IMG/VR virus record: IMGVR_UViG_3300047160_007712
Location: 1-50,683 of that record
From: a virus
DNA length: 50,683 nucleotides
Direction: 5' to 3' (one strand)
This document shows, piece after piece, positions 4,064 to 50,683 of this stretch. The number at the start of each line of letters is the position of its first letter. The first letter of the stretch is position 1. Under the pieces are notes generated by a model. It was given only the letters and a program-made list of their open reading frames with translations. It searched no databases and was not told the origin of the DNA. The position numbers were made by a program, and so were the translations under genes.

Positions 4064-4092
4064 ACTATGGCATGCTCCCCATTCTATGTCAA
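4064..4092 (-). promoter_or_regulatory. Candidate sigma70 promoter (minus strand): TTGACA-17 nt-CATAGT
   Basis: Plus-strand tgtcaa at 4087-4092 is a perfect -35 on the minus strand. Plus-strand actatg at 4064-4069 gives CATAGT (4/6 match). The spacer is exactly 17 nt. Confidence 0.4.
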
Positions 4093-4570: not shown

Positions 4571-4698
4571 GGGCTTAGTCCTCTCGTGGCGTGATTGCCA
4601 CGGTCAACAGCCTCCCACACCATTGTGGCGAAAGTATGACAAGTTGAGAAAATAAATTTGTTCCCCAAATGTTCTCATTCCGTTCTCCACCTGTTCTG

Positions 4699-4742
4699 GA
4701 TATCCTTGAGATATCCCAGAGATATCCTATGGATATCCTATA
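4699..4742. repeat. Left iteron array: four GATATCC repeats at an exact 11-bp period
   Basis: GATATCC starts at 4699, 4710, 4721 and 4732. A degenerate GATTAAT follows at 4743, then GATTAATGGAT. Confidence 0.9.
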
Positions 4743-4803
4743 GATTAATGGATTAACAAAAAGTGACCCACATTCTGCAAGCCTGCAAATTCCAGCGCAA
4801 ATT

Positions 4804-4854
<51 letters not shown>

Positions 4855-4866
4855 TACATATACCAC

Positions 4867-4887
4867 CCCTCCCCCCCCCAGGGAGGG
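4867..4887. other. C-rich hairpin next to the A tract
   Basis: CCCTCCC (4867-4873) pairs with GGGAGGG (4881-4887) around a 7-nt C-rich loop. TCAATTTTC follows on the plus strand. Confidence 0.5.
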
Positions 4888-4915
4888 TCAATTTTCAAAC
4901 ATCCATTAATCCATA

Positions 4916-4959
4916 GGATATCTCTAGGATATCTCTAGGATATCTATAGGATATCCATT
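4916..4959. repeat. Right iteron array: four GGATATC repeats at an exact 11-bp period, inverted relative to the left array
   Basis: GGATATC starts at 4916, 4927, 4938 and 4949. A ninth copy sits at 4995-5001, just upstream of the early promoter. ATCCATTAAT (4901-4910) is the inverted partner of ATTAATGGAT (4744-4753). Confidence 0.9.
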
Positions 4960-4962
4960 AAA

Positions 4963-4974
4963 TCCATTAATGGA
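4963..4974. promoter_or_regulatory. Perfect 12-bp palindrome TCCATTAATGGA (operator candidate)
   Basis: The sequence is its own reverse complement and lies 42 bp upstream of the -35 at 5016. The same half-sites recur at 6468-6479 and 6490-6501. Confidence 0.4.
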
Positions 4975-5015
4975 GGACGGGCGATAACATCATGGGATAT
5001 CGGGGGAAATCATCC

Positions 5016-5044
5016 TTGACAACGGGGGCGATTTGTGGTATAAT
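5016..5044 (+). promoter_or_regulatory. Early promoter, perfect sigma70 consensus with extended -10
   Basis: TTGACA (5016-5021), a 17-nt spacer ending in TGG, and TATAAT (5039-5044). It sits 62 nt upstream of the first plus-strand ORF. Confidence 0.75.
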
Positions 5045-5106
5045 GGGCGCGGTTTGGTGAGAAATTCACTGACCATAGATCGCGATCTTAGCAAAGGACC
5101 ATTGTC

Positions 5107-6197: not shown

Positions 6198-6464
6198 ATG
6201 ACCTTCACTCCCCTTGGCGATGTCGCCAACACCATTCGTGACAATCTTAAGCAACAACCAAAGGGCGAACCGATCAGAGAGTTGGTTCATCTGCGAATCT
6301 CACTAGCCCGTATAGCTCAGGCGACTAATCTCGAGGAGAAAATCCCCGGCATCGGTAATTTGCGAGAAGTTCCGTTCACGACGCTTGACTACTTGGCTCG
6401 AACGGAGGCCAGAGGGTGGAATGCCCTCGCCGCAGCAATTGTGGATCGAATGACGCTCCGCTAA
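6198..6464 (+). CDS. Hypothetical protein (88 aa)
   Basis: Track ORF with AAAGGAC 9 nt upstream of the ATG. Confidence 0.6.
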   Translation: MTFTPLGDVANTIRDNLKQQPKGEPIRELVHLRISLARIAQATNLEEKIPGIGNLREVPFTTLDYLARTEARGWNALAAAIVDRMTLR

Positions 6465-6467
6465 GTC

Positions 6468-6501
6468 TCCATCAATGGAGGGCGTGCTCTCCATCTATGG
6501 G
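6468..6501. promoter_or_regulatory. Two operator-like palindromes 22 bp apart
   Basis: TCCATCAATGGA at 6468-6479 and TCCATCTATGGG at 6490-6501. They lie in the 200-bp gap before ORF 6664. Confidence 0.4.
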
Positions 6502-6663
6502 AACTTAACCTTCCCAACCATTCCAACACAAAGTGCCTCAGCAAGGTAGACCAAAGCCAAATGCTAGCTCGGCGAGTAGTCCGTGACCCCAAGTGTTGCA
6601 AGTTGGAAGTCCAAGGGTGAGTAGCAATCCCGCTCTTGCCCAAACCTAAAGAGGATTGCATTA

Positions 6664-7374
6664 ATGGCAAACCTAGAAATCGCCATCACCAAGGCCAAAG
6701 GTAAAGCGTTCGTCATCGACAAGGCCCGAGTCAATGCCCTGTTAGACAATCCCCGCATCCTTGAGGAAGCAGTGACCGTCTACCTCGGCGTCATGCTCAA
6801 CCTTGGCATGTCGAAGCTCCCGGCGACCAAGGAATTGACTGGCGAAGCCCTCGAAGCGGCACAAGCCAAGGCAATGGAAGTTGCCGAAGCAAACTTCGCC
6901 GCAATCGAGGATGGCAGCAAGATCGGCAAACGTAGCGGCAAAGCCAAGTCGAAGGCCAAGGAAGACCAAAAGGTCATCAACGAGGCCCTTCGTCTTTGCA
7001 GGGAAGTCGTGCGAGACCGCCTGAAGGCCGCTGGTATCAGACTAAATACCCGCAAAGCTTCGGAAATCACCGAAGCCGCGAAACGGTACTTTGCCGAAAG
7101 AGAGGACTTCTACATTGCCAAAGCCAAGACCAACCTCGCCGAGCGTGAGGCTGAGGTCGAAGCCAATGGCGATGCGGAGTTCGTCGACGCTATCCTCCCC
7201 AAGGCCGATCCGAAGAAACTTGCAAAACTGCAAGCGGAGAAGGCCGAACGGAGTGCGGAGGCCGCTGCCAGGGCGGCTGCGGGTTATCCCACCAAGCGTG
7301 GCCGCAAGGCCAAGTCCGCAAGGGCTTCAGTCCCAACGCGCAAAGGTGACACCCCGCAGCACGCCAGCCATTAA
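6664..7374 (+). CDS. Lys/Ala/Glu-rich hypothetical protein (236 aa)
   Basis: Track ORF. The antisense ORFs in this region have low-complexity shadow composition. Confidence 0.6.
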   Translation: MANLEIAITKAKGKAFVIDKARVNALLDNPRILEEAVTVYLGVMLNLGMSKLPATKELTGEALEAAQAKAMEVAEANFAAIEDGSKIGKRSGKAKSKAKEDQKVINEALRLCREVVRDRLKAAGIRLNTRKASEITEAAKRYFAEREDFYIAKAKTNLAEREAEVEANGDAEFVDAILPKADPKKLAKLQAEKAERSAEAAARAAAGYPTKRGRKAKSARASVPTRKGDTPQHASH

Positions 7375-16664: not shown

Positions 16665-17892
16665 GACTGATGCAGAGAATATTCTTGACACACCCCGCGG
16701 GGTTATAAACCGAAAGTGTGAGTCGTGGATTGCTAGCTTCATCGCTGAAACCTCCAACCTCGGCGCGCCCACCATCTGGCGGCAATGGGCGGCGATCTCT
16801 GTCATCGCCGCGGTCCTCGAACAGCGCGTTTGGCTCCAAACCTCCTCCCCGCTTTATCCCAACCTCTACCTAATGATCGTCGGCCCACCGGGCACTGGCA
16901 AGACCAGAACATTGCGTGTTGCCAAACGCCTGCTCCTAACCATCCCCGAGTTCGGCCTCGCCCCAACCTCCGTCACGTTCCCAGCCCTGGTCGACGCGAT
17001 GGACCTTTGCAAGCGCACCATCGCCATCCCAGGCTCTGACGAAGTCCAAGAATACAACTCCATCTACATCTGCGCGGAAGAGCTCGGCGCATTCATCCAC
17101 AAGTGGGATGAGGAAATGATCAAAGGCCTCTCCGCCTTCTACGACGTCGACCCCTACGCCCAGAACCGCCGAACCAACGATCTCAAGATCAAAATCGACC
17201 GGCCACAAGTCAACATGATCTGCGCCTGTACGCCCCAAGACCTGCTCAAACTCATGCCCGATGTCGCCTGGGGTCAGGGCTTTACCTCGCGCACTATCAT
17301 GATCTATTCCCCCGAGCGACTCAAGGTCGATGACTTCGCCCGCCGCCCGCCGCCCAAACTCCACAATCTCTCCTTCGACCTCAACATCATCCACAACCTC
17401 TCCGGGGAATTTCATGCGACTAAGGAATACATTTCGCGCGTTAATTCATGGATCGATCAAGGTGAGCCGCCCATTCCCAAACACCCTAAACTTCTCCATT
17501 ATATTTCCCGCAGAAAGGTTAATATTTATAAACTGTCAATGGTCGCATCGGTCGATCGATCAAACGCCCTCGTCCTCCGTGAGGAAGACTTCAATCGAGC
17601 TTACAACTGGCTATGTGAAGCCGAGTCACTCATGCCGGAGATCTTCAAAACCGGCGCGGTGAACCTCGACGCCCAGGCCATGGACGAAATCCGCCACTTT
17701 GTCATGGCGGCCGATCGGGGCAAGGGCGTTGAGGAACACAAGATCACCTACTTCGCGCGGGATAAGATCCAAATCAGCATGATCAAACACATGCTCGACA
17801 TCATGGAAGGGACAGGCATGCTGCGCAATCGCGGCGTTGATCCGCGGACGGGGTATCGCCTGTTCTCGGCCTCCGATCCCGAGGCCGATTAA
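16597..17892 (+). CDS. P-loop NTPase, DUF3987-like putative replicative helicase (431 aa)
   Basis: Walker A MIVGPPGTGKT and Walker B-like IYICAEELG. AAAGGAG lies 9 nt upstream of the ATG. It overlaps the polymerase 3' end by 68 nt. Confidence 0.6.
   Translation: MTTESELHKQKYSTGLSQDRLRKTDAENILDTPRGVINRKCESWIASFIAETSNLGAPTIWRQWAAISVIAAVLEQRVWLQTSSPLYPNLYLMIVGPPGTGKTRTLRVAKRLLLTIPEFGLAPTSVTFPALVDAMDLCKRTIAIPGSDEVQEYNSIYICAEELGAFIHKWDEEMIKGLSAFYDVDPYAQNRRTNDLKIKIDRPQVNMICACTPQDLLKLMPDVAWGQGFTSRTIMIYSPERLKVDDFARRPPPKLHNLSFDLNIIHNLSGEFHATKEYISRVNSWIDQGEPPIPKHPKLLHYISRRKVNIYKLSMVASVDRSNALVLREEDFNRAYNWLCEAESLMPEIFKTGAVNLDAQAMDEIRHFVMAADRGKGVEEHKITYFARDKIQISMIKHMLDIMEGTGMLRNRGVDPRTGYRLFSASDPEAD
17866..17888. 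terminator. Hairpin at the convergence point of the two arms
   Basis: TCGGCCTC (17866-17873) pairs with GAGGCCGA (17881-17888) around a 7-nt loop. There is no clear U tract on either strand. Confidence 0.25.
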
Positions 17893-18356
17893 CCCCCGGC
17901 CGGCGTTTCGGCCCTAGCCACATACTCCCCAAGCACAAATTCCCTATGCTCGCCATTGCGCCGAGTCACAATCTCGGGCGGTTGGTCCCACCACAGCAAC
18001 GCCTCAGCCGCGCCGGGTTTATCCCCCGCATTGAGCCGCTGAAGGAACGTCGAGTTCAAGAAATTCGTCGAGCCGACATTAAACACAAACGAACAACACG
18101 CATCATGCTCCCACTGCGTCAACACCGTCGTCACCGCCAGCGCGACTTCATCCCTAAACGTCGCGGCGTCATTGTAGAAGATCTGCTCGGCCTGTTCTTC
18201 CGTAATCACCATTCCCTGATAAACCGTCGGCGGCCCAGCGGCGGAGGTATGGCCGAGGCCGATCGTCAGCACCCCCGTCGTGTCCAGATACGCCTCTAGC
18301 CTCAAGCCCTCGCGCTCATGCAAAACCCTATACCCGTCCTCGCTGAGTATCATCAC
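17889..18356 (-). CDS. Endolysin, GH24 (T4/lambda-type) lysozyme (155 aa)
   Basis: HEREGLRLEAYLDTTGVLTIGLGH matches the E-x8-D-x5-T catalytic signature of the lysozyme family. Confidence 0.85.
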   Translation of the reverse strand: MMILSEDGYRVLHEREGLRLEAYLDTTGVLTIGLGHTSAAGPPTVYQGMVITEEQAEQIFYNDAATFRDEVALAVTTVLTQWEHDACCSFVFNVGSTNFLNSTFLQRLNAGDKPGAAEALLWWDQPPEIVTRRNGEHREFVLGEYVARAETPAGG

Positions 18357-27011: not shown

Positions 27012-27401
27012 TTATTTCACCAACTTGAACACCAATCCCCCCGGCCCGGGCTCTACCTTCGCCCCAAGACGCCGAAGCCAATGCGCGCTGTCACGGTTGC
27101 AATGGCCAACGATGCGAGGGTAGCGATACCAAGCGGCCTCAACAACTCGATATCCCCATCGGCCGAGGATATATGGAAATTGAACAGCTTGCTGGCTAGT
27201 GTACATCCACAAGTAAGCATCGTCGGCAAGGAGTGTTGGGGGGATAAAGCCCAAGACCACAAGGAAATGGCCACGATAGTCGCCCCGAAGGATAGGGTCG
27301 CTAAGGCCGCCAGCTCGAACGATGTCAGCGAGTTCGGCCGGTTCAGGAATTGGGAGGGCTTCAAGGTCATCTGGCTCCACGCGAGTGATGGCGGCGTTCA
27401 T
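27012..27401 (-). CDS. Hypothetical virion-assembly protein (129 aa), in the T7 gp13 position
   Basis: Start trimmed to ATG 27401, which overlaps the upstream stop (ATGA). Confidence 0.5.
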   Translation of the reverse strand: MNAAITRVEPDDLEALPIPEPAELADIVRAGGLSDPILRGDYRGHFLVVLGFIPPTLLADDAYLWMYTSQQAVQFPYILGRWGYRVVEAAWYRYPRIVGHCNRDSAHWLRRLGAKVEPGPGGLVFKLVK

Positions 27402-32593: not shown

Positions 32594-32824
32594 CTAGGCG
32601 TGATCGGGCTCCTTGGTTGTGTTCAAGCCCGCGATTGGGATCACATCCCCGGGCAAGAACGGGTTGACGATAACATAGATCGAAACAATCGTCGTGGCCC
32701 AGGATTGGATGTAGTCCACAACCCACTGTGGGATACCGAGCGGGAAGTGGACCGCGCCTTGGGATGCCGCGGCGACTACGGCCATGACGATGGAGATGGC
32801 CAGGCCCCATTGCTTTTGGGTCAT
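32594..32824 (-). CDS. Holin candidate, two predicted transmembrane helices (76 aa)
   Basis: The hydrophobic stretches are WGLAISIVMAVVAAASQGAV and WATTIVSIYVIVNPFL. It follows the tail fibre, as T7 gp17.5 does. Confidence 0.5.
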   Translation of the reverse strand: MTQKQWGLAISIVMAVVAAASQGAVHFPLGIPQWVVDYIQSWATTIVSIYVIVNPFLPGDVIPIAGLNTTKEPDHA

Positions 32825-38541: not shown

Positions 38542-39183
38542 TCAGAGCCCACAGACGAGTTTGATGACATCAGTGCCGATGCCGTTGACGGTGACGGTGA
38601 CGGAGCCGCCGGATGGTGTGCCCTCAACGGCGTAACTGGTGTTGGCCGGGGTGGTGCGGTCGGCGGTGACACAGTTAGGCTGGGAAGAGCCGGTGTCGGA
38701 GAAGGTTACGTTAGCTGTGCCCGCGGAGAGAGTTACGGAGGTGTTGTAGGATGAGCCAGAGCTGCCACCGCCCATGCCATTGCCACCGGCGGATGAGAGC
38801 CAGGAATTGTAAACGGAGGAGAATTGGAGTTGGAAGCTGGTGTTGGGCGTTGTGCAGGTGGTTGGGTAGCTGCCGATGGTTGAGCCGTCGGTGGTGAGGA
38901 GGTTGAGGGTGGTGATGGCGTAGCGGCAGGTGAGTTGGATGATCTGGCCGTCCCATGGCGGGTTGGGGAGGGTGATGTTCCAAGTCGTGATCGCGCCGAT
39001 GGGATAGAGGTTGAGGTTGGTTGGGTGGTTGAAGCTCGCGGCGACGGTGGTGTTGGTGACGGGGGAGGTAGGGACGACGTTGATCACGCCAGTTGCGTAG
39101 ATCGGCGGATTGATGTAGCCCTGCTGCGCCAGAGCAAGCCCTGGAGCCAACGCCAGTGCCAGTGTGGTTAGCCACTTGATCAC
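38542..39183 (-). CDS. Signal-peptide protein (213 aa), fibre/adaptor-like
   Basis: GTG 39183 overlaps the upstream TGA (GTGA). The N-terminus is (M)IKWLTTLALALAPGLALA/QQ. Contains WNITLPNPPWDGQIIQL. Confidence 0.55.
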   Translation of the reverse strand: MIKWLTTLALALAPGLALAQQGYINPPIYATGVINVVPTSPVTNTTVAASFNHPTNLNLYPIGAITTWNITLPNPPWDGQIIQLTCRYAITTLNLLTTDGSTIGSYPTTCTTPNTSFQLQFSSVYNSWLSSAGGNGMGGGSSGSSYNTSVTLSAGTANVTFSDTGSSQPNCVTADRTTPANTSYAVEGTPSGGSVTVTVNGIGTDVIKLVCGL

Positions 39184-40149: not shown

Positions 40150-40770
40150 TCAGTTCTCCGTCCAGATGAAGGTGATGTTGATAGCGCCGGTGGAGATGGT
40201 CTTGCCGTCGAGATTGACGCAGATTTGCTGGACCACTGTCCCGGCCTTGGGGATTTCAAAGGCCTGGGTGATGGGGAGGACATCTTGGGGAGAGGAAACA
40301 AAGGTCGGGACATTGGGAGAGGTGGTGACTTGGAAGGCCTGCGCGAAGGCCGCGAGCAGGGAAGGGGTGGAGTCGGTGACAGTTGGATTGGCGGAATAGG
40401 AGACGAGAGTCGCGGTTGAGGCGGAGTTGAACGGGCTCAATGGCGCGGCGACGGGAAGGGCAAGGCCGGTGTTGGCGGTGCCGCCTGTGTCGAGGGAGTG
40501 GTTGAGGTTGATCATGATCGGGGTCGTGATGGCGGTGCCAGCTGAGCCCGAGACGATGATTTCCTTCAACGAGACATTGCGCGACGTTGAGCCGTTTAGG
40601 CACATTAGGTCTGTGGCCGCTGCGGGCGGGACCATGAGCACGCCCGAGGCCGAGTAGGTTGGTTGGGGGACGTAGCCGGAGATCACGCCGGGTTGTGGCA
40701 CGACGTTGACTTGGGCGAATGCTGGGGCAGTGAGCCCCAGCAACGCGGCGGTGGTGAGGAGCTTGCGCAT
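40150..40770 (-). CDS. Signal-peptide protein (206 aa), function unknown
   Basis: ATG 40770 with AGGAC about 9 nt upstream. The N-terminus is MRKLLTTAALLGLTAPAFA/QV. Confidence 0.6.
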   Translation of the reverse strand: MRKLLTTAALLGLTAPAFAQVNVVPQPGVISGYVPQPTYSASGVLMVPPAAATDLMCLNGSTSRNVSLKEIIVSGSAGTAITTPIMINLNHSLDTGGTANTGLALPVAAPLSPFNSASTATLVSYSANPTVTDSTPSLLAAFAQAFQVTTSPNVPTFVSSPQDVLPITQAFEIPKAGTVVQQICVNLDGKTISTGAINITFIWTEN

Positions 40771-47494: not shown

Positions 47495-48349
47495 CTATTG
47501 GCCAATTCCCATCATGGTTCGGAGGCGCGGGGTGACGGCAGCAGCGACCACGCCCACGTAGTCGGATTGGGGATTGTCTGGGTACCAGAACGACCACGGA
47601 TCGGCGGCCCAGGCTATTAGCTGTGATACAGACAGCTTCGCCGTACTCATCATAGCGCAGGCGATGCCTGGACCATGCGGCGGATCGGAAGTTCCAGTGG
47701 CACTGTCTGCGCCAACAGCACAGCTTCCTGCGAAGTTTCCAATTGTAGTCGCGCTGCCAGATTGAACGGAATATGTGACCGCGCCGGTTGTTAGATTTGT
47801 CCAAACGAAGTTGCCTATGCTCGGATTTGCTGGGAAATTGAAGCATACAAAATACGGCGTTAGTGTATATATTTGGCTGGAGATGGTTGCTGAAACATCT
47901 CCTCCGCTAAAGAGTTCTAGGTTCGCCGGGCTTGATAGGCCTTTTATGTACATGCCAATGGAAGAGCCGATGTCTAATATGACAGTTTTGTAAGCAGCAC
48001 CAATGGTGGTGTTCATTATAAGTATAGCGGCGCATGTAATCGCTGAAGGTGGACTAGCGGCCTTTGAAGGAAAGACATAGCCGCCAATGCTAATCATAGG
48101 CCCAAAGGAGGTTTGTGTTAAAACAGGTGCCCCGGCACCTCTAGCACTCGGCGTGACAGAAGCGTGAAGAGGCATATACCCGGGAAGTGATACCCCTGAT
48201 GGGATAGCAATAAACGAGCCGCCGTAGGCTATTCCTTGAGATGCCGGATGCGACGGGTCAAAGCCAGGCTGTCGACCGGCAGGGAAGGCAAGTGGGTTGC
48301 GCCAGATGCCGCGGCGATTGTAGGCGAGTGGTGGTAGGCCAAGGGGCAA
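47495..48349 (-). CDS. Jelly-roll (LamG/ConA-like?) fibre-module protein (284 aa) with a low-GC central part
   Basis: Track ORF that is beta-rich. C-terminal motif LIAWAADPWSFWYP. The fold assignment is a guess. Confidence 0.55.
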   Translation of the reverse strand: MPLGLPPLAYNRRGIWRNPLAFPAGRQPGFDPSHPASQGIAYGGSFIAIPSGVSLPGYMPLHASVTPSARGAGAPVLTQTSFGPMISIGGYVFPSKAASPPSAITCAAILIMNTTIGAAYKTVILDIGSSIGMYIKGLSSPANLELFSGGDVSATISSQIYTLTPYFVCFNFPANPSIGNFVWTNLTTGAVTYSVQSGSATTIGNFAGSCAVGADSATGTSDPPHGPGIACAMMSTAKLSVSQLIAWAADPWSFWYPDNPQSDYVGVVAAAVTPRLRTMMGIGQ

Positions 48350-48358
48350 GGTGGTGGC

Positions 48359-49036
48359 TCAGTACTGCATTGAGAACGGGGCAAGGGCAAGGGTGTTCGC
48401 GGAGGACGCGAAGGTCTGGCCGGTGTTGTTTTGAAGGAAGGTGTAGAACTCGAGGGCCTCAATGAAGGTTGGCGCGGAGGCGTAGATGTTGGCCGCGGTG
48501 ATGGTTGTGGAGGGGAGGGCGATAACGGCGTCGGGAGAGCGGGCTTGAGAGGCGTTGGAGACAGTGGTTTCGAAGTGGGTGCCATCGTAGGATGGGATCC
48601 ACCAGATCGATGCAGCGGCGCCGGCGGTAAGGGCGGTGCCAATAGTGCCGAGGGTGAGGAATAGGCGGCCGATCATGCCTTGAGCGGTGTTGGAGTTGGT
48701 GAATTTGCCCGATGAGCCACCAACGGATGACAGGGCGGTGTTGCCAGTGGCGAGGGAATTCATCTCGGTGGTGAGGAGAGTGAGGGCGGTGGCAAGCAGG
48801 CCGTTGTTGGAAGTGCCCGGGCCCCAGAGGAATTGGGTGGCGGCGAGAGCGGCGGTGGGAATGAGGAAGGGCGACAGAGCAGCGGCGCCAAGGAATGCAC
48901 GGCGAGAGATGGCGGGGACGAAGCGGGATTGACCTTCGTAGTGTTCGAAATGGCCTTCGCCCTCGAGGACGGGGTCGATGCCAGGTGGGTCGAAGCCAAC
49001 TAGGCGTGGGCGATAGATGCGGCAGAGCTTGGTCAT
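48359..49036 (-). CDS. Protein with a Tat-type signal peptide (225 aa)
   Basis: The ATG overlaps the upstream stop (ATGA). Residues 44-65 read SRRAFLGAAALSPFLIPTAALA/A, that is S-R-R-x-F-L, a hydrophobic region and AxA. Confidence 0.6.
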   Translation of the reverse strand: MTKLCRIYRPRLVGFDPPGIDPVLEGEGHFEHYEGQSRFVPAISRRAFLGAAALSPFLIPTAALAATQFLWGPGTSNNGLLATALTLLTTEMNSLATGNTALSSVGGSSGKFTNSNTAQGMIGRLFLTLGTIGTALTAGAAASIWWIPSYDGTHFETTVSNASQARSPDAVIALPSTTITAANIYASAPTFIEALEFYTFLQNNTGQTFASSANTLALAPFSMQY

Positions 49037-49620
49037 TGAAGTGGAAGTCCACCATTAGCCGGGGCTGCGGCGGTGAGATCGTTCGAGTTCACCGGCCCGT
49101 TCAGGCCACCACCACTGTTTTTAGCTGGAACGATGTACCATGGTTCTACCAGTGCCTTGGCGGCGGCGGAGAGACAGTTGATCGTCGGGCCGTTGTTGGG
49201 GAAGTTCTGGACGACCAGCGCGACGGTGAGGTAGGCGGTGTTGGCGGTGCCACCTAGCAGTTGGCCGGGAGTGGCGAAGAGGGACATGAGCTGTTGCTGG
49301 ATCGGGGCGGTGAGGGATTCGAATTCGGCGTAGTTGATGCAGTTGATGATCTGGGAGCCGGTGACGTAGTAGGTGGTTGGGATGGTGCCGGTTACGGTCC
49401 AGGCGTTGATTGCGGCCAGTTTATCGGTCGTGGTCAGGCCAAAGAGCGATGTACCCGCTACGCCTGAGGGCATTGCGCCGGACGAGGCGCTGGATAGGTT
49501 CCAGTCAGCGACCAGCGTGGCGTAGTAGGTCGCTGGGTCAGTCACGGCGAGGGAGGTGCTCGCCCAGAGCAGGGAGAGGGAGGCGGCGAGGAATGCGCGG
49601 AGGCGGCTATTGCTGAACAT
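49033..49620 (-). CDS. Signal-peptide protein (195 aa)
   Basis: Track ORF with N-terminus MFSNSRLRAFLAASLSLLWASTSLA/VT. Confidence 0.6.
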   Translation of the reverse strand: MFSNSRLRAFLAASLSLLWASTSLAVTDPATYYATLVADWNLSSASSGAMPSGVAGTSLFGLTTTDKLAAINAWTVTGTIPTTYYVTGSQIINCINYAEFESLTAPIQQQLMSLFATPGQLLGGTANTAYLTVALVVQNFPNNGPTINCLSAAAKALVEPWYIVPAKNSGGGLNGPVNSNDLTAAAPANGGLPLQ

Positions 49621-50683
49621 AGGTCAGGTTCCCAGCGATCTGCGCTGTGCCGGATTGGAAGATGCAGAGATAGTCCGCGGCGGTGGCGGTGACGGCGACT
49701 GTGCCACCGCCATTGCCAAGGGTTAGACCGCCGTTCGCGATCATGGACATGCCATTGGCCGCAGTGCCGGACGTGGCGACGCCAATGACCGCGGCTTGGT
49801 TGGATGTACCGCAGGTGGCCGATGAGCCTTCGGCGAGGGAGACCGAGACGGCGGATGGGACGACGAGGGACAGCGAGCAGACGTAGATCTTCTTGGCCGA
49901 AACGCCGGTCACGAGGGCGAATGTGCCGGAAGCGGACGAGAACGCCGCGTTGGTTTTGGCCTGGAACATGCATGGATCAGCGGCGGTTTGGTTAGAGGCC
50001 AGAACGACCGGGATGCTGGCGCTGGCGGTGGTAGAGCCAAGGGCTAGGGCTGAGCCGCCGACCTGGGAGAGGTTGACGGATTGGTTGGCGGCGAGTGAGC
50101 CGATGGTGTTTGAGCCCGGGAGCAGCGCGGTGTTTTGGGTGAGGACGATAGGGGTGATGAATGGCGTGACGGTAGCGGTGCCGGTGATGGCGGTGGATAG
50201 GAGCAGGCGCACCGCCATGCCGTTGGGGTAGATGAGGAATTGTTTATTGGTGCTGGCAACGAGGGTGTAGGGGAGGGAGATTTGGGCGCCGGTGGAGGAG
50301 GTAGGGTCGACGACTTGATAGGCGGAGATGGTGGTCCAGTTGGTGCCGTCACCTGAGACCTGGAAGTTGATCGCACCGGCTGTGATGGTAGTGGTGGTGT
50401 CGAGCTGGACGAGGTAGGCACTGGCTTGGGCGTTTTGATTGATGATGGTTTGGGTGGTGTTGACGGTGGTGGAGGATGTCCAGGCAGTGCCAGTGATGGT
50501 GACGTTGCCGGGGGCGGTGAGCAGATGGCCGCCAATGTCGTCGGTTTGCATCGAGACGGTCTGGCCGGCGGTGAGATTGGGGGGAGTGGTGGAGTATTGG
50601 ACGAGGGTAGCAATGCCGTTGGTGGGCGCGGTGCCAGCGGCGATGGTTGAGTCGATGGTTGCGCCCGCGTTGCCAACAATGCG
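49607..50683 (-). CDS. C-terminal part of the 1224-aa junction-spanning repeat protein
   Basis: Track ORF 49607-50551 is open upstream to the window end in the same frame (RIVGNAGATIDST...LVQYSTTPPNLTAGQTVSMQTDD). 50587-50683 duplicates 1-97. Confidence 0.8.
   Translation of the reverse strand, partial: RIVGNAGATIDSTIAAGTAPTNGIATLVQYSTTPPNLTAGQTVSMQTDDIGGHLLTAPGNVTITGTAWTSSTTVNTTQTIINQNAQASAYLVQLDTTTTITAGAINFQVSGDGTNWTTISAYQVVDPTSSTGAQISLPYTLVASTNKQFLIYPNGMAVRLLLSTAITGTATVTPFITPIVLTQNTALLPGSNTIGSLAANQSVNLSQVGGSALALGSTTASASIPVVLASNQTAADPCMFQAKTNAAFSSASGTFALVTGVSAKKIYVCSLSLVVPSAVSVSLAEGSSATCGTSNQAAVIGVATSGTAANGMSMIANGGLTLGNGGGTVAVTATAADYLCIFQSGTAQIAGNLTYVQQ
50587..50683. repeat. Terminal overlap, identical to 1-97
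   Basis: Direct comparison of both ends. Confidence 0.95.

Follow-up and report, generated by a model that had tools for sequence, protein, structure and literature searches.

Bacterial twin-arginine translocation (Tat) signals such as those of TorA and SufI (PF10518/TIGR01409) combine an S-R-R-x-F-L motif with a moderately hydrophobic region (h-region) containing Pro and Gly, an AxA cleavage site and a cysteine-free cargo that can fold before export. The same combination, with the cleavage predicted, is found in ORF-B, an open reading frame (ORF) on the minus strand of the IMG/VR virus record IMGVR_UViG_3300047160_007712, of which we analysed the full 50,683 nucleotides (the window). Unlike the bacterial signals, ORF-B carries its arginine pair 44 residues in, after a conserved and partly structured n-region, has no basic residue in its c-region, and lies in a phage late operon, within a cassette of fibre-like genes that also includes its neighbours ORF-A and ORF-C. 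Our favoured reading, to which we give a probability of about 0.5, is that B is a Tat pre-protein cut after A65, and that the cassette delivers a fibre-like, glycan-binding-type protein set to the envelope.

A fibre- or spike-type protein with a Tat signal is known from Pantoea stewartii, where WceF is a Tat-exported, tailspike-like depolymerase of extracellular polysaccharide (EPS; PMC7949094). There, as we propose for B, a folded, probably oligomeric and glycan-directed protein crosses the inner membrane, but WceF is a chromosomal beta-helix enzyme of an EPS cluster with a signal of 28 amino acids (aa), whereas B is a 160-aa jelly roll of a lytic-type phage, encoded near the terminase. Tat is also used by hitch-hiker complexes, among them HybOC, DmsAB and PaoABC (PMC4273604). 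As in those pairs, one of two adjacent-gene partners has a signal here: in the window and in the related P0002/P0077 pair B has one and C has none. Unlike in them, no cofactor is involved in B-C, and the B-C pairing is known here from the genes alone.

Phage proteins that are exported and encoded beside receptor-binding genes, namely Llp of T5, Cor of phi80 and N15, and Lom and Bor of lambda, act on the envelope or receptor of the infected cell. They are small lipoproteins or outer membrane beta-barrels that depend on the general secretory (Sec) and Lol pathways and are unrelated to fibre domains; in contrast, the present cassette has no lipobox, is homologous to fibre shafts and tips, and includes one Tat-type signal. 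Tat signals as such are well known, as are phage-exported proteins, which besides Llp, Cor and Lom/Bor include signal-arrest-release endolysins and spanins. The general view, to our knowledge, is that phages export lysis proteins or small exclusion lipoproteins and that tailed phages make and assemble their fibre and receptor-binding modules in the cytoplasm, and we know of no virion fibre with a cleavable signal peptide. Closest to the virion side are the modules of the Ralstonia phage GP4 fiber I gp80 type (PF23140), since the A-B-C genes of signal-less relatives follow a gp80-like gene, and the S74-chaperone fibres (T5 pb1, K1F endosialidase), since a 916-aa protein of the window has the same virion-fibre-typical domain. 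Signal-bearing genes with unassigned function and signal peptidase I-type sites have been reported from Porphyromonas gingivalis phages and were proposed to modify the host surface (PMC10367356). These belong to different phage and host groups, with no fibre homology or Tat signals reported there; Gln at +1 of the cleavage site is found at several sites here too. Our literature search turned up no account of a Tat substrate among the late or fibre genes of a phage, none of a fibre-module cassette whose members have Sec and Tat signals, and none of a family of fibre-tip domains alternating among virion-type, free and exported forms. An earlier reading of this DNA (the original prediction) had likewise called a Tat substrate in the late operon of a lytic-type phage undescribed as a feature of virion modules.

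The export-type N-terminus of ORF-B

The features on which the argument rests are as follows.

48359-49036, (-): ORF-B, a 225-aa precursor with an ATG start, made up of a 43-aa n-region, twin-arginine motif, h-region, AxA site and 160-aa jelly roll
48890-48907, (-): codons of S44-R45-R46-A47-F48-L49, the Tat consensus S-R-R-x-F-L, matching RR.[FGAVML][LITMVF]
48842-48898, (-): h/c-region A47-A65, 19 uncharged residues (AFLGAAALSPFLIPTAALA), with a predicted signal peptidase I cut after A65
48362-48841, (-): the cysteine-free, all-beta jelly roll of mature B, A66-Y225, from alignment and AlphaFold2 (AF2)
47495-48349, (-): ORF-C, 284 aa, LamG/ConA-like, no signal, TTG start at 48349, the conserved downstream partner of B
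49033-49620, (-): ORF-A, 195 aa, Sec-like over aa 1-25 and then a mostly alpha-helical domain, from sequence and AF2
49546-49620, (-): signal-like extension of ORF-A (MFSNSRLRAFLAASLSLLWASTSLA, predicted cut before VT), with an alternative in-frame GTG at 49545

The N-terminus of ORF-B reads MTKLCRIYRPRLVGFDPPGIDPVLEGEGHFEHYEGQSRFVPAISRRAFLGAAALSPFLIPTAALA, followed by ATQFLW at the predicted cut, where the AxA site A63-L64-A65 precedes A66-T67-Q68. Its h-region contains Pro and Gly and is moderately hydrophobic, with a mean Kyte-Doolittle value of 1.61 over the uncharged run A47-T67 (21 residues), compared with 1.55 for ORF-A and 1.67-2.24 for most Sec-type signals of the window phage. The sequence is exactly as quoted in the original prediction, whose description of an S-R-R-x-F-L motif, a moderately hydrophobic h-region, an AxA site and a 43-aa n-region is borne out. 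The translational coupling it stated, to an upstream ORF with a Sec-like N-terminus, is likewise as stated, the ATG of ORF-B at 49036 sharing ATGA with the TGA of ORF 49033-49620. It had named as a possible refutation a true start downstream of the arginine pair, and this is excluded: there is no in-frame ATG, GTG or TTG between M1 and M92, so that the first 26 residues of the conserved domain can be made only if the extension is translated too. The GC content at third codon positions is coding-like in the extensions of both B (0.69) and A (0.86), compared with 0.70-0.77 in capsid, portal and tail genes. How often such a motif arises was estimated in the six-frame open frames of the window and 61 loci (729,080 residues), requiring RR.[FGAVML][LITMVF] together with at least 13 uncharged hydrophobic residues. 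This TatP-style pattern occurred 29 times, or about once per 25,000 residues, and 13 times with A.A, or about once per 56,000.

The sole close orthologue of B, P0002 (69% identity), has kept the n-region and the arginine pair, while its h-region has diverged yet is still hydrophobic. It retains IYRPR(L/M)(V/I)GFDP...P(V/I)LEGEG...ISRRA, differs in the core (AFGALAGLGAFAFAL), and continues with KDEAKA/NTQ, giving a basic c-region, whereas the c-region of the window B is without a basic residue. Judged from these two proteins, a conserved n-region and arginine pair with a diverging hydrophobic core is the evolutionary pattern of signal peptides. Long n-regions occur in three separate B lineages, of 43 aa in the window, 55 aa in P0002 and 44 aa in P0154 (locus L062), placing the arginine pair at residues 45-46, about 54-55 and about 46-47, respectively; the n-region sequence of P0154 is unrelated to that of the window. 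AF2 predicts a beta-hairpin at aa 28-41 of the window n-region, with a block-mean predicted local distance difference test score (pLDDT) of up to 78. A metagenome scan for this n-region found the same phage (L050) and, beyond it, only two chance matches in restriction-modification loci. These features suggest that the N-terminus of ORF-B is a cleavable Tat-type export signal, and it is from the sequence that we infer Tat dependence and cleavage.

The upstream neighbour has the layout of a Sec signal, MFSNSRLR / AFLAASLSLLWA / STSLA/VT, with a positive n-region, a hydrophobic core and small residues at -3 and -1. The natural variant P0060 carries A12 -> V in this core. The GGGAACC in front of the ORF-A ATG resembles the AGGACC that precedes the genes for the major capsid protein, the portal and a 206-aa protein, and nothing comparable precedes the alternative GTG.

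The mature domain, its family and its partner ORF-C

AF2, run with a 54-sequence alignment, predicts a jelly roll over about residues 70-225 of B with a mean pLDDT of 81. Modelling of the mature parts, which had been proposed as a check, was fully informative only for B, a confident jelly roll with most of the domain above 90; ORF-A reached a pLDDT of 67, and a Foldseek search with that model gave no meaningful match. Foldseek matches of B in the PDB are weak only, to carbohydrate-binding modules (CBM) of families 6/32/35, C1q/TNF heads, the C-terminal domain of a Klebsiella tailspike and the HFTV1 turret (best E = 6.8e-3, to a CBM), with further weak matches to alginate lyases of polysaccharide lyase family 7 (PL7). 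In BFVD the best matches are to 137-164-aa proteins, uncharacterised and from uncultured Caudovirales (E = 2e-7). A and B were scanned against Pfam, PHROGs and NCBIfam, the B profile, the C profile and the C-terminus of the 1224-aa protein of the cassette were searched against PDB sequences, and A, B, C and the 206-aa protein were compared by tblastn with 50,697 deposited phage records; none of this gave a match, and B and C matched no catalytic family in the Pfam, PHROGs, NCBIfam and PDB searches.

A profile search of 1.84 billion representatives found 1319 members of the B family. In essentially all of the 150 representatives listed the domain stands at the C-terminal end, with N-terminal extensions of up to about 690 aa that contain fibre-type repeats. 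Most of the 59 database matches to B are about 161 aa long and start M-x-T-N-F-L-W, aligned to A66-T-Q-F-L-W, and the same start at the cleavage site is seen in 47 IMG/VR loci. Sorted by N-terminal class, about 200 retrieved members divide as follows.

No N-terminal extension: 120
Short Sec-like signal immediately before the domain: 12 scored, 11 convincing (e.g. MKKLL..., MKHLS...)
Tat-like: 5, namely the window, P0002, P0100 (MRRSFLAG), P0154 (44-aa n-region and TRRKLIAG) and P0163 (LSRRSMFRK)
Long fibre-like proteins that start with a signal and end in a B domain: about 10 (e.g. P0201, 853 aa)
Fibre-like extension without a signal (MANNV...ETIDQGGGVQRQ..., GTFWQATQPVSG repeats): the rest

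The AxA/(A)T junction falls at the same alignment position in all signal-bearing members, and the GTFWQATQPVSG repeats of the signal-less fibre-like members are also present in the 1224-aa protein of the window. This census argues that B is a fibre-tip-type or lectin-like module that occurs free-standing, fused to fibres or exported. The original prediction had preferred a periplasmic or surface protein "rather than a virion part", and that exclusion is not supported, the family of the mature domain being mostly signal-less, located in fibre modules and often at the fibre tip; nor did we find features of the cofactor enzyme that it had offered as one possibility.

Cysteine content differs with the type of N-terminus. 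An even number of cysteines (2 or 4) is present in 16 of 18 B domains behind Sec-type signals, compared with 12 of 111 signal-less domains (Fisher p = 4e-11). The gain of cysteine pairs by Sec-signal variants argues for real export, such pairs being what selection by an oxidising periplasm would be expected to give. The Tat-type B of the window has zero cysteines, which suits folding ahead of Tat transport.

The 284-aa ORF-C was called publicly (JGI) at only 173 aa (P0076), but its homologues align over 85-100% of the 284-aa frame. PF13385 (Laminin_G_3) was matched on the C homologue P0086, and C proteins have an invariant PGFDPxHPA and AWAADPWSFWYP, with D31 and H34 among the invariant residues. 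B and C are adjacent in most loci and A often precedes them. Where relatives lack signals, the A-B-C trio comes after a gene with a match to 'Podophage GP4 fiber I gp80' (PF23140), and in the related phage L030 (65% identity in the large terminase subunit, TerL, and 59% in the portal) B-C lies in the tail module. In other lineages with a signal on B, C always has an N-terminal signal too, a twin-arginine one in 4 of 5 and one resembling a signal peptide in L064; the C motifs include SRRRFLAG, ISRRGLLTG, TRRYLLSG, LSRRRLIQV, PSRRSFLRG and, in P0083, ISRRALIG. Counted by lineage, both proteins have signals in 5, neither in 13, C only in 0 and B only in 1 (the window/P0002), which gives a Fisher p of 5e-4 from counts that are small and not fully independent. 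The window C and its orthologue P0077 have no signal and no upstream coding room for one. Since C is signal-less here and has a twin-arginine signal in four of five other exporting lineages, its hitch-hiking on the signal of B is plausible, specific and testable, and a B-C complex may be the form that is exported.

Possible export routes and roles

If the favoured reading is correct, ORF-B would be made as a 225-aa precursor carrying a cleavable twin-arginine signal at its N-terminus, with an n-region that is unusually long at 43 aa. The cysteine-free jelly roll would fold in the cytoplasm, the folded protein would probably bind the signal-less, LamG-like C, and TatABC would move B over the inner membrane. 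Signal peptidase I would cut after A65 to leave a 160-aa protein beginning ATQFLW, the unit that most related phages make without a signal. With predicted signals on the 163-aa, 60-aa and 1224-aa proteins, A and B, and none on C, the periplasm or envelope of the infected cell would receive from the cassette a fibre-like assembly of glycan-binding type, which may there bind or remodel the envelope polysaccharide or receptor recognised by the phage's own fibres. As a result the receptor could be masked, superinfection limited, and the loss of progeny to the lysing cell prevented. Fibre homology, the folds of CBM/C1q-like and LamG type and the example of WceF together suggest such binding or remodelling, and we favour a role in binding envelope or receptor glycan, with masking, exclusion or an aid to release as the probable benefit. 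We regard the observation as solid and the comparative pattern as surprising; export route and function follow from them by inference.

Several observations weigh against this reading. The arginine pair at residues 45-46 is much deeper than in typical Tat signals, and short versions do occur in P0100 and the C proteins; the program TATFIND requires the pair within the first 35 residues. The n-region of B is almost charge-neutral (+7/-6), and its c-region lacks a basic 'Sec-avoidance' residue. The Pfam TAT_signal model (PF10518, gathering threshold 22.7 bits) did not match the isolated B N-terminus, although it missed the E. coli TorA control too; for the C proteins of L056 and L055 it scored 20.4 and 16 bits. 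The signal of ORF-A is present in 0 of 17 homologues, all of which begin at aa 30, making it unique among 18 sequences, and the in-frame GTG at codon 26 (49545) could skip it. About 60% of the B family is without a signal and in fibre modules, and since most members are of this kind a virion role for the domain is equally natural. The fold matches of B are too weak for any ligand or activity to be assigned, and a protein in the periplasm would have to be secreted once more before it could meet a receptor at the cell surface.

Export and cleavage of B through Sec, with the arginine pair serving as the positive end of an ordinary signal and C staying in the cytoplasm, is unlikely but deserves serious consideration. 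Many members of the B family have plainly Sec-type signals (MKKLL..., MKHLS...), arginine pairs are found also in Sec-looking N-termini of the cassette (MIRRLTAAL in the 1224-aa protein, MRRSAAIL in the B of L055), the window c-region has no basic residue, and the h-region hydrophobicity of B overlaps that of ORF-A (1.61 and 1.55). Against Sec export, the full S-R-R-x-F-L is present and kept in P0002, which adds a basic c-region, and C has a twin-arginine signal in four of five other exported lineages; the B domain of the window is without a cysteine pair, unlike the Sec-type variants, and a 43-aa, partly structured n-region with a predicted beta-hairpin is awkward for co-translational or unfolded Sec targeting. 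The same long n-regions, conserved or structured in three lineages (43, 55 and 44 aa), speak for an uncleaved signal-anchor, with which B would be bitopic in the inner membrane, its 43-aa tail in the cytoplasm and its jelly roll in the periplasm, and might tie something cytoplasmic, the virion or tail, to the envelope. So does P0002, whose n-region is better conserved than its h-region. Rieske proteins are Tat-inserted signal-anchors. Tail-anchored Tat substrates are a further known case of anchors inserted by Tat (PMC10924467). An AxA is nonetheless found at the domain boundary in every signal-bearing member, even those with very short n-regions, and the moderately hydrophobic h-region with its Pro and Gly fits a signal better than a stable transmembrane helix, and we consider an anchor very improbable.

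That there is no export, the extension being a cytoplasmic adaptor or docking segment and A, B and C ordinary accessory or tip proteins of the virion fibre, seems to us doubtful. Most homologues are indeed signal-less and stand beside the gp80-type fibre gene (PF23140) or are fused to fibre shafts, B-C of L030 is located in a tail module, and neither Pfam, NCBIfam nor the TAT_signal model (which also missed TorA) matched. But eight signal-like N-termini in one phage would then have arisen by coincidence, and the co-occurrence of B and C signals, the gain of cysteine pairs behind Sec-type signals, and the divergence of the h-region with kept hydrophobicity would all go unexplained. If export does occur, its purpose could be enzymatic, the CBM-like B and C with its ConA-like glucanase/lyase fold being secreted to loosen capsule or EPS from within and so aid the escape of progeny. 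In agreement with this, the fold of B resembles CBM6/32/35 and weakly matches PL7 alginate lyases, C belongs to the ConA-like lectin/glucanase superfamily with invariant D31 and H34, related prophages carry a signal-bearing, pectate-lyase-like 863-aa protein in the same cassette, and Tat-exported WceF is a precedent. Such an enzymatic cassette has little to recommend it given that B and C matched no catalytic family in the searches above, that the fold matches are all weak, and that the window's own 947-aa tailspike-like protein is signal-less.

A related proposal keeps the Tat signal of B and changes its purpose to a second, periplasmic route of fibre biogenesis. The 1224-aa protein, the 916-aa protein with its S74 domain, A, B, and C carried on the Tat signal of B would be exported, have their cysteines oxidised and assemble in the periplasm, and would then decorate the cell surface or join cytoplasm-built virions upon lysis; whole lineages would have changed these fibre modules from cytoplasmic to Sec/Tat-exported assembly or the reverse. 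We hold this to be rather unlikely. Whichever purpose applies, the window podophage and several phage and prophage lineages of soil Alphaproteobacteria-type hosts have Sec or Tat signals on homologues of fibre shaft, tip and accessory proteins. If the export is real, these would form an undescribed class of phage envelope effectors or reveal a new assembly route, and they would be a natural viral use of Tat, possibly with hitch-hiking; annotation pipelines should then not call every fibre-like gene a virion part.

Genome context and further signal-like N-termini

Positions 1-97 of the window equal 50587-50683, a 97-bp terminal direct repeat, and the contig is on this basis a circular genome of 50,586 bp. 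A linear ORF listing misses ORFs that cross the junction, for example that of the 1224-aa protein. Downstream of C are the large terminase (PHROG 2), then a T7-type portal (PF12236) and an epsilon15 GP7-type capsid protein (PF20911), and the phage is an epsilon15/T7-like podophage of lytic type from soil. The other features are listed below.

4064-4092, (-): sigma-70-like promoter TTGACA-17-CATAGT, TG-extended, heading the leftward operon that contains the cassette
1-2695, (-): N-terminal part of the 1224-aa protein, from GTG 2695, signal-like M/VIRRLTAALALALLAAPALA/TTTQ
49607-50586, (-): C-terminal part of the 1224-aa fibre-like repeat protein, whose ORF crosses the circular junction; listed as a 314-aa ORF at 49607-50551
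2692-2874, (-): 60-aa ORF, signal-like MNRWLWLVMAMFFALAADA/QT, GTGA-coupled to the 1224-aa ORF; a small hydrophobic ORF is in the same place in L063
2871-3362, (-): 163-aa ORF, signal-like ...MMSLGFIILMALGLLSRPAVA/QG; homologous to a 138-aa protein, MTRVLRVALALALLWASPLAA/QG, in L063
32948-35698, (-): 916-aa fibre, signal-like MRIPMFKRLLLATFIALGASQAHA/QAP, with a Peptidase_S74 intramolecular chaperone domain at aa 780-838
40150-40770, (-): 206-aa structural-module protein, signal-like MRKLLTTAALLGLTAPAFA/QV
38542-39183, (-): 213-aa protein, GTG start, GTGA-coupled, signal-like MIKWLTTLALALAPGLALA/QQ; a similar signal-bearing 158-aa protein is in L030

The cassette is at the promoter-proximal end of the leftward operon in the order 214 aa, 163 aa, 60 aa, 1224 aa, A, B, C, TerL. 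The original prediction had placed the two ORFs correctly between the 1224-aa repeat protein and the terminase but had omitted C (47495-48349), which comes before the terminase; the 1224-aa protein does exist, only on the circularised contig. To treat A and B as an isolated oddity was too narrow, since at least eight late proteins of this phage have signal-like N-termini: B, A and those of 1224, 60, 163, 916, 206 and 213 aa. At five of the eight predicted cleavage sites Gln is at +1. No such signals were seen on the core T7/epsilon15-type parts (the 947-aa tailspike-like protein, tail tube A and B, internal virion proteins and endolysin).

Cysteine pairs follow the predicted cleavage sites of the two large fibre-like proteins. 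The 1224-aa protein begins MIRRLTAALALALLAAPALA/TTTQ, followed by Cys pairs and TCANCSG motifs, and its C-terminal part has weak PHROG tail matches and a GNLTYVQQ ending in common with the fibre that precedes P0154 in L062. The 916-aa protein, encoded directly after the signal-less 947-aa tailspike-like gene, begins MRIPMFKRLLLATFIALGASQAHA/QAPVFCPTRPAGDNSNAC and continues with a Cys-x12-Cys loop. Signal-bearing fibres homologous to the 1224-aa protein are found in L013 (1122 aa) and as P0201 (853 aa), which ends in a B domain. The arrangement of the cassette recurs in other loci: L063 encodes a helix-turn-helix protein, the signal-bearing 138-aa protein, a small hydrophobic ORF and a signal-bearing fibre ending in a B domain, while L013 has the signal-bearing 1122-aa fibre, a Sec-signal B, a Tat-signal C and a signal-bearing 1265-aa protein. 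In prophages of Alphaproteobacteria metagenome-assembled genomes (MAGs) the interval between TerL and portal holds the pectate-lyase-like 863-aa protein with its signal, two small proteins that also have signals, B (MRRSAAILIALCTAMPAQA/ATP) and C (MMGPSRRRFLAGFAAGGVALAAARSATA/FQ), the last with a textbook Tat signal. The 863-aa protein of L055, L056, L057, L009 and L018 (soil Alphaproteobacteria MAG prophages and IMG/VR contigs) has five Ig-like repeats. The small signal-bearing structural-module proteins of the window (38542-39183 and 40150-40770) share a ...TWNITLPxPxxDGxxIxL... beta-domain, with equivalents in L030 at 6352-7238.

Other categories were considered for the cassette and rejected. 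A separate moron transcription unit does not fit, there being no excess of promoters or terminators within the cassette and its genes being ATGA/GTGA-coupled. A temperate lysogenic-conversion gene is not a suitable description in the window phage, where no integrase or repressor is found among ten early-region ORFs, although related cassettes do occur in prophages. The cassette genes do not resemble a spanin pair or exclusion lipoprotein, having no lipobox and no coiled coil and lying 30 kb from the endolysin; neither A nor B has a lipobox Cys at its predicted cleavage site or close to it. We identified no spanin pair in the window phage. Holin candidates are a 76-aa protein with two hydrophobic segments and a 105-aa protein with hydrophobic segments, and the endolysin (PHROG 7), the last gene of the leftward operon, is far from both (the three genes are at window 32594-32824, 27053-27370 and 17889-18356).

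A canonical Shine-Dalgarno sequence is mostly absent from late-gene starts (e.g. 42724, 45550, 40770, 49620); several late genes have an AGGACC-like motif 8-14 nt before the start, and many are ATGA/GTGA-coupled. The intergenic control region at window 4600-5050 contains a 40-nt poly(A) run (4811-4850) flanked by GGATATC(C/T) repeat arrays (4699-4745, 4917-4956) and ATTAATGG/CCATTAAT motifs. It also has a perfect TTGACA-17-TATAAT promoter at 5016-5044 (+), divergent from TTGACA-17-CATAGT at 4092-4064 (-), and looks like an origin or operator region.

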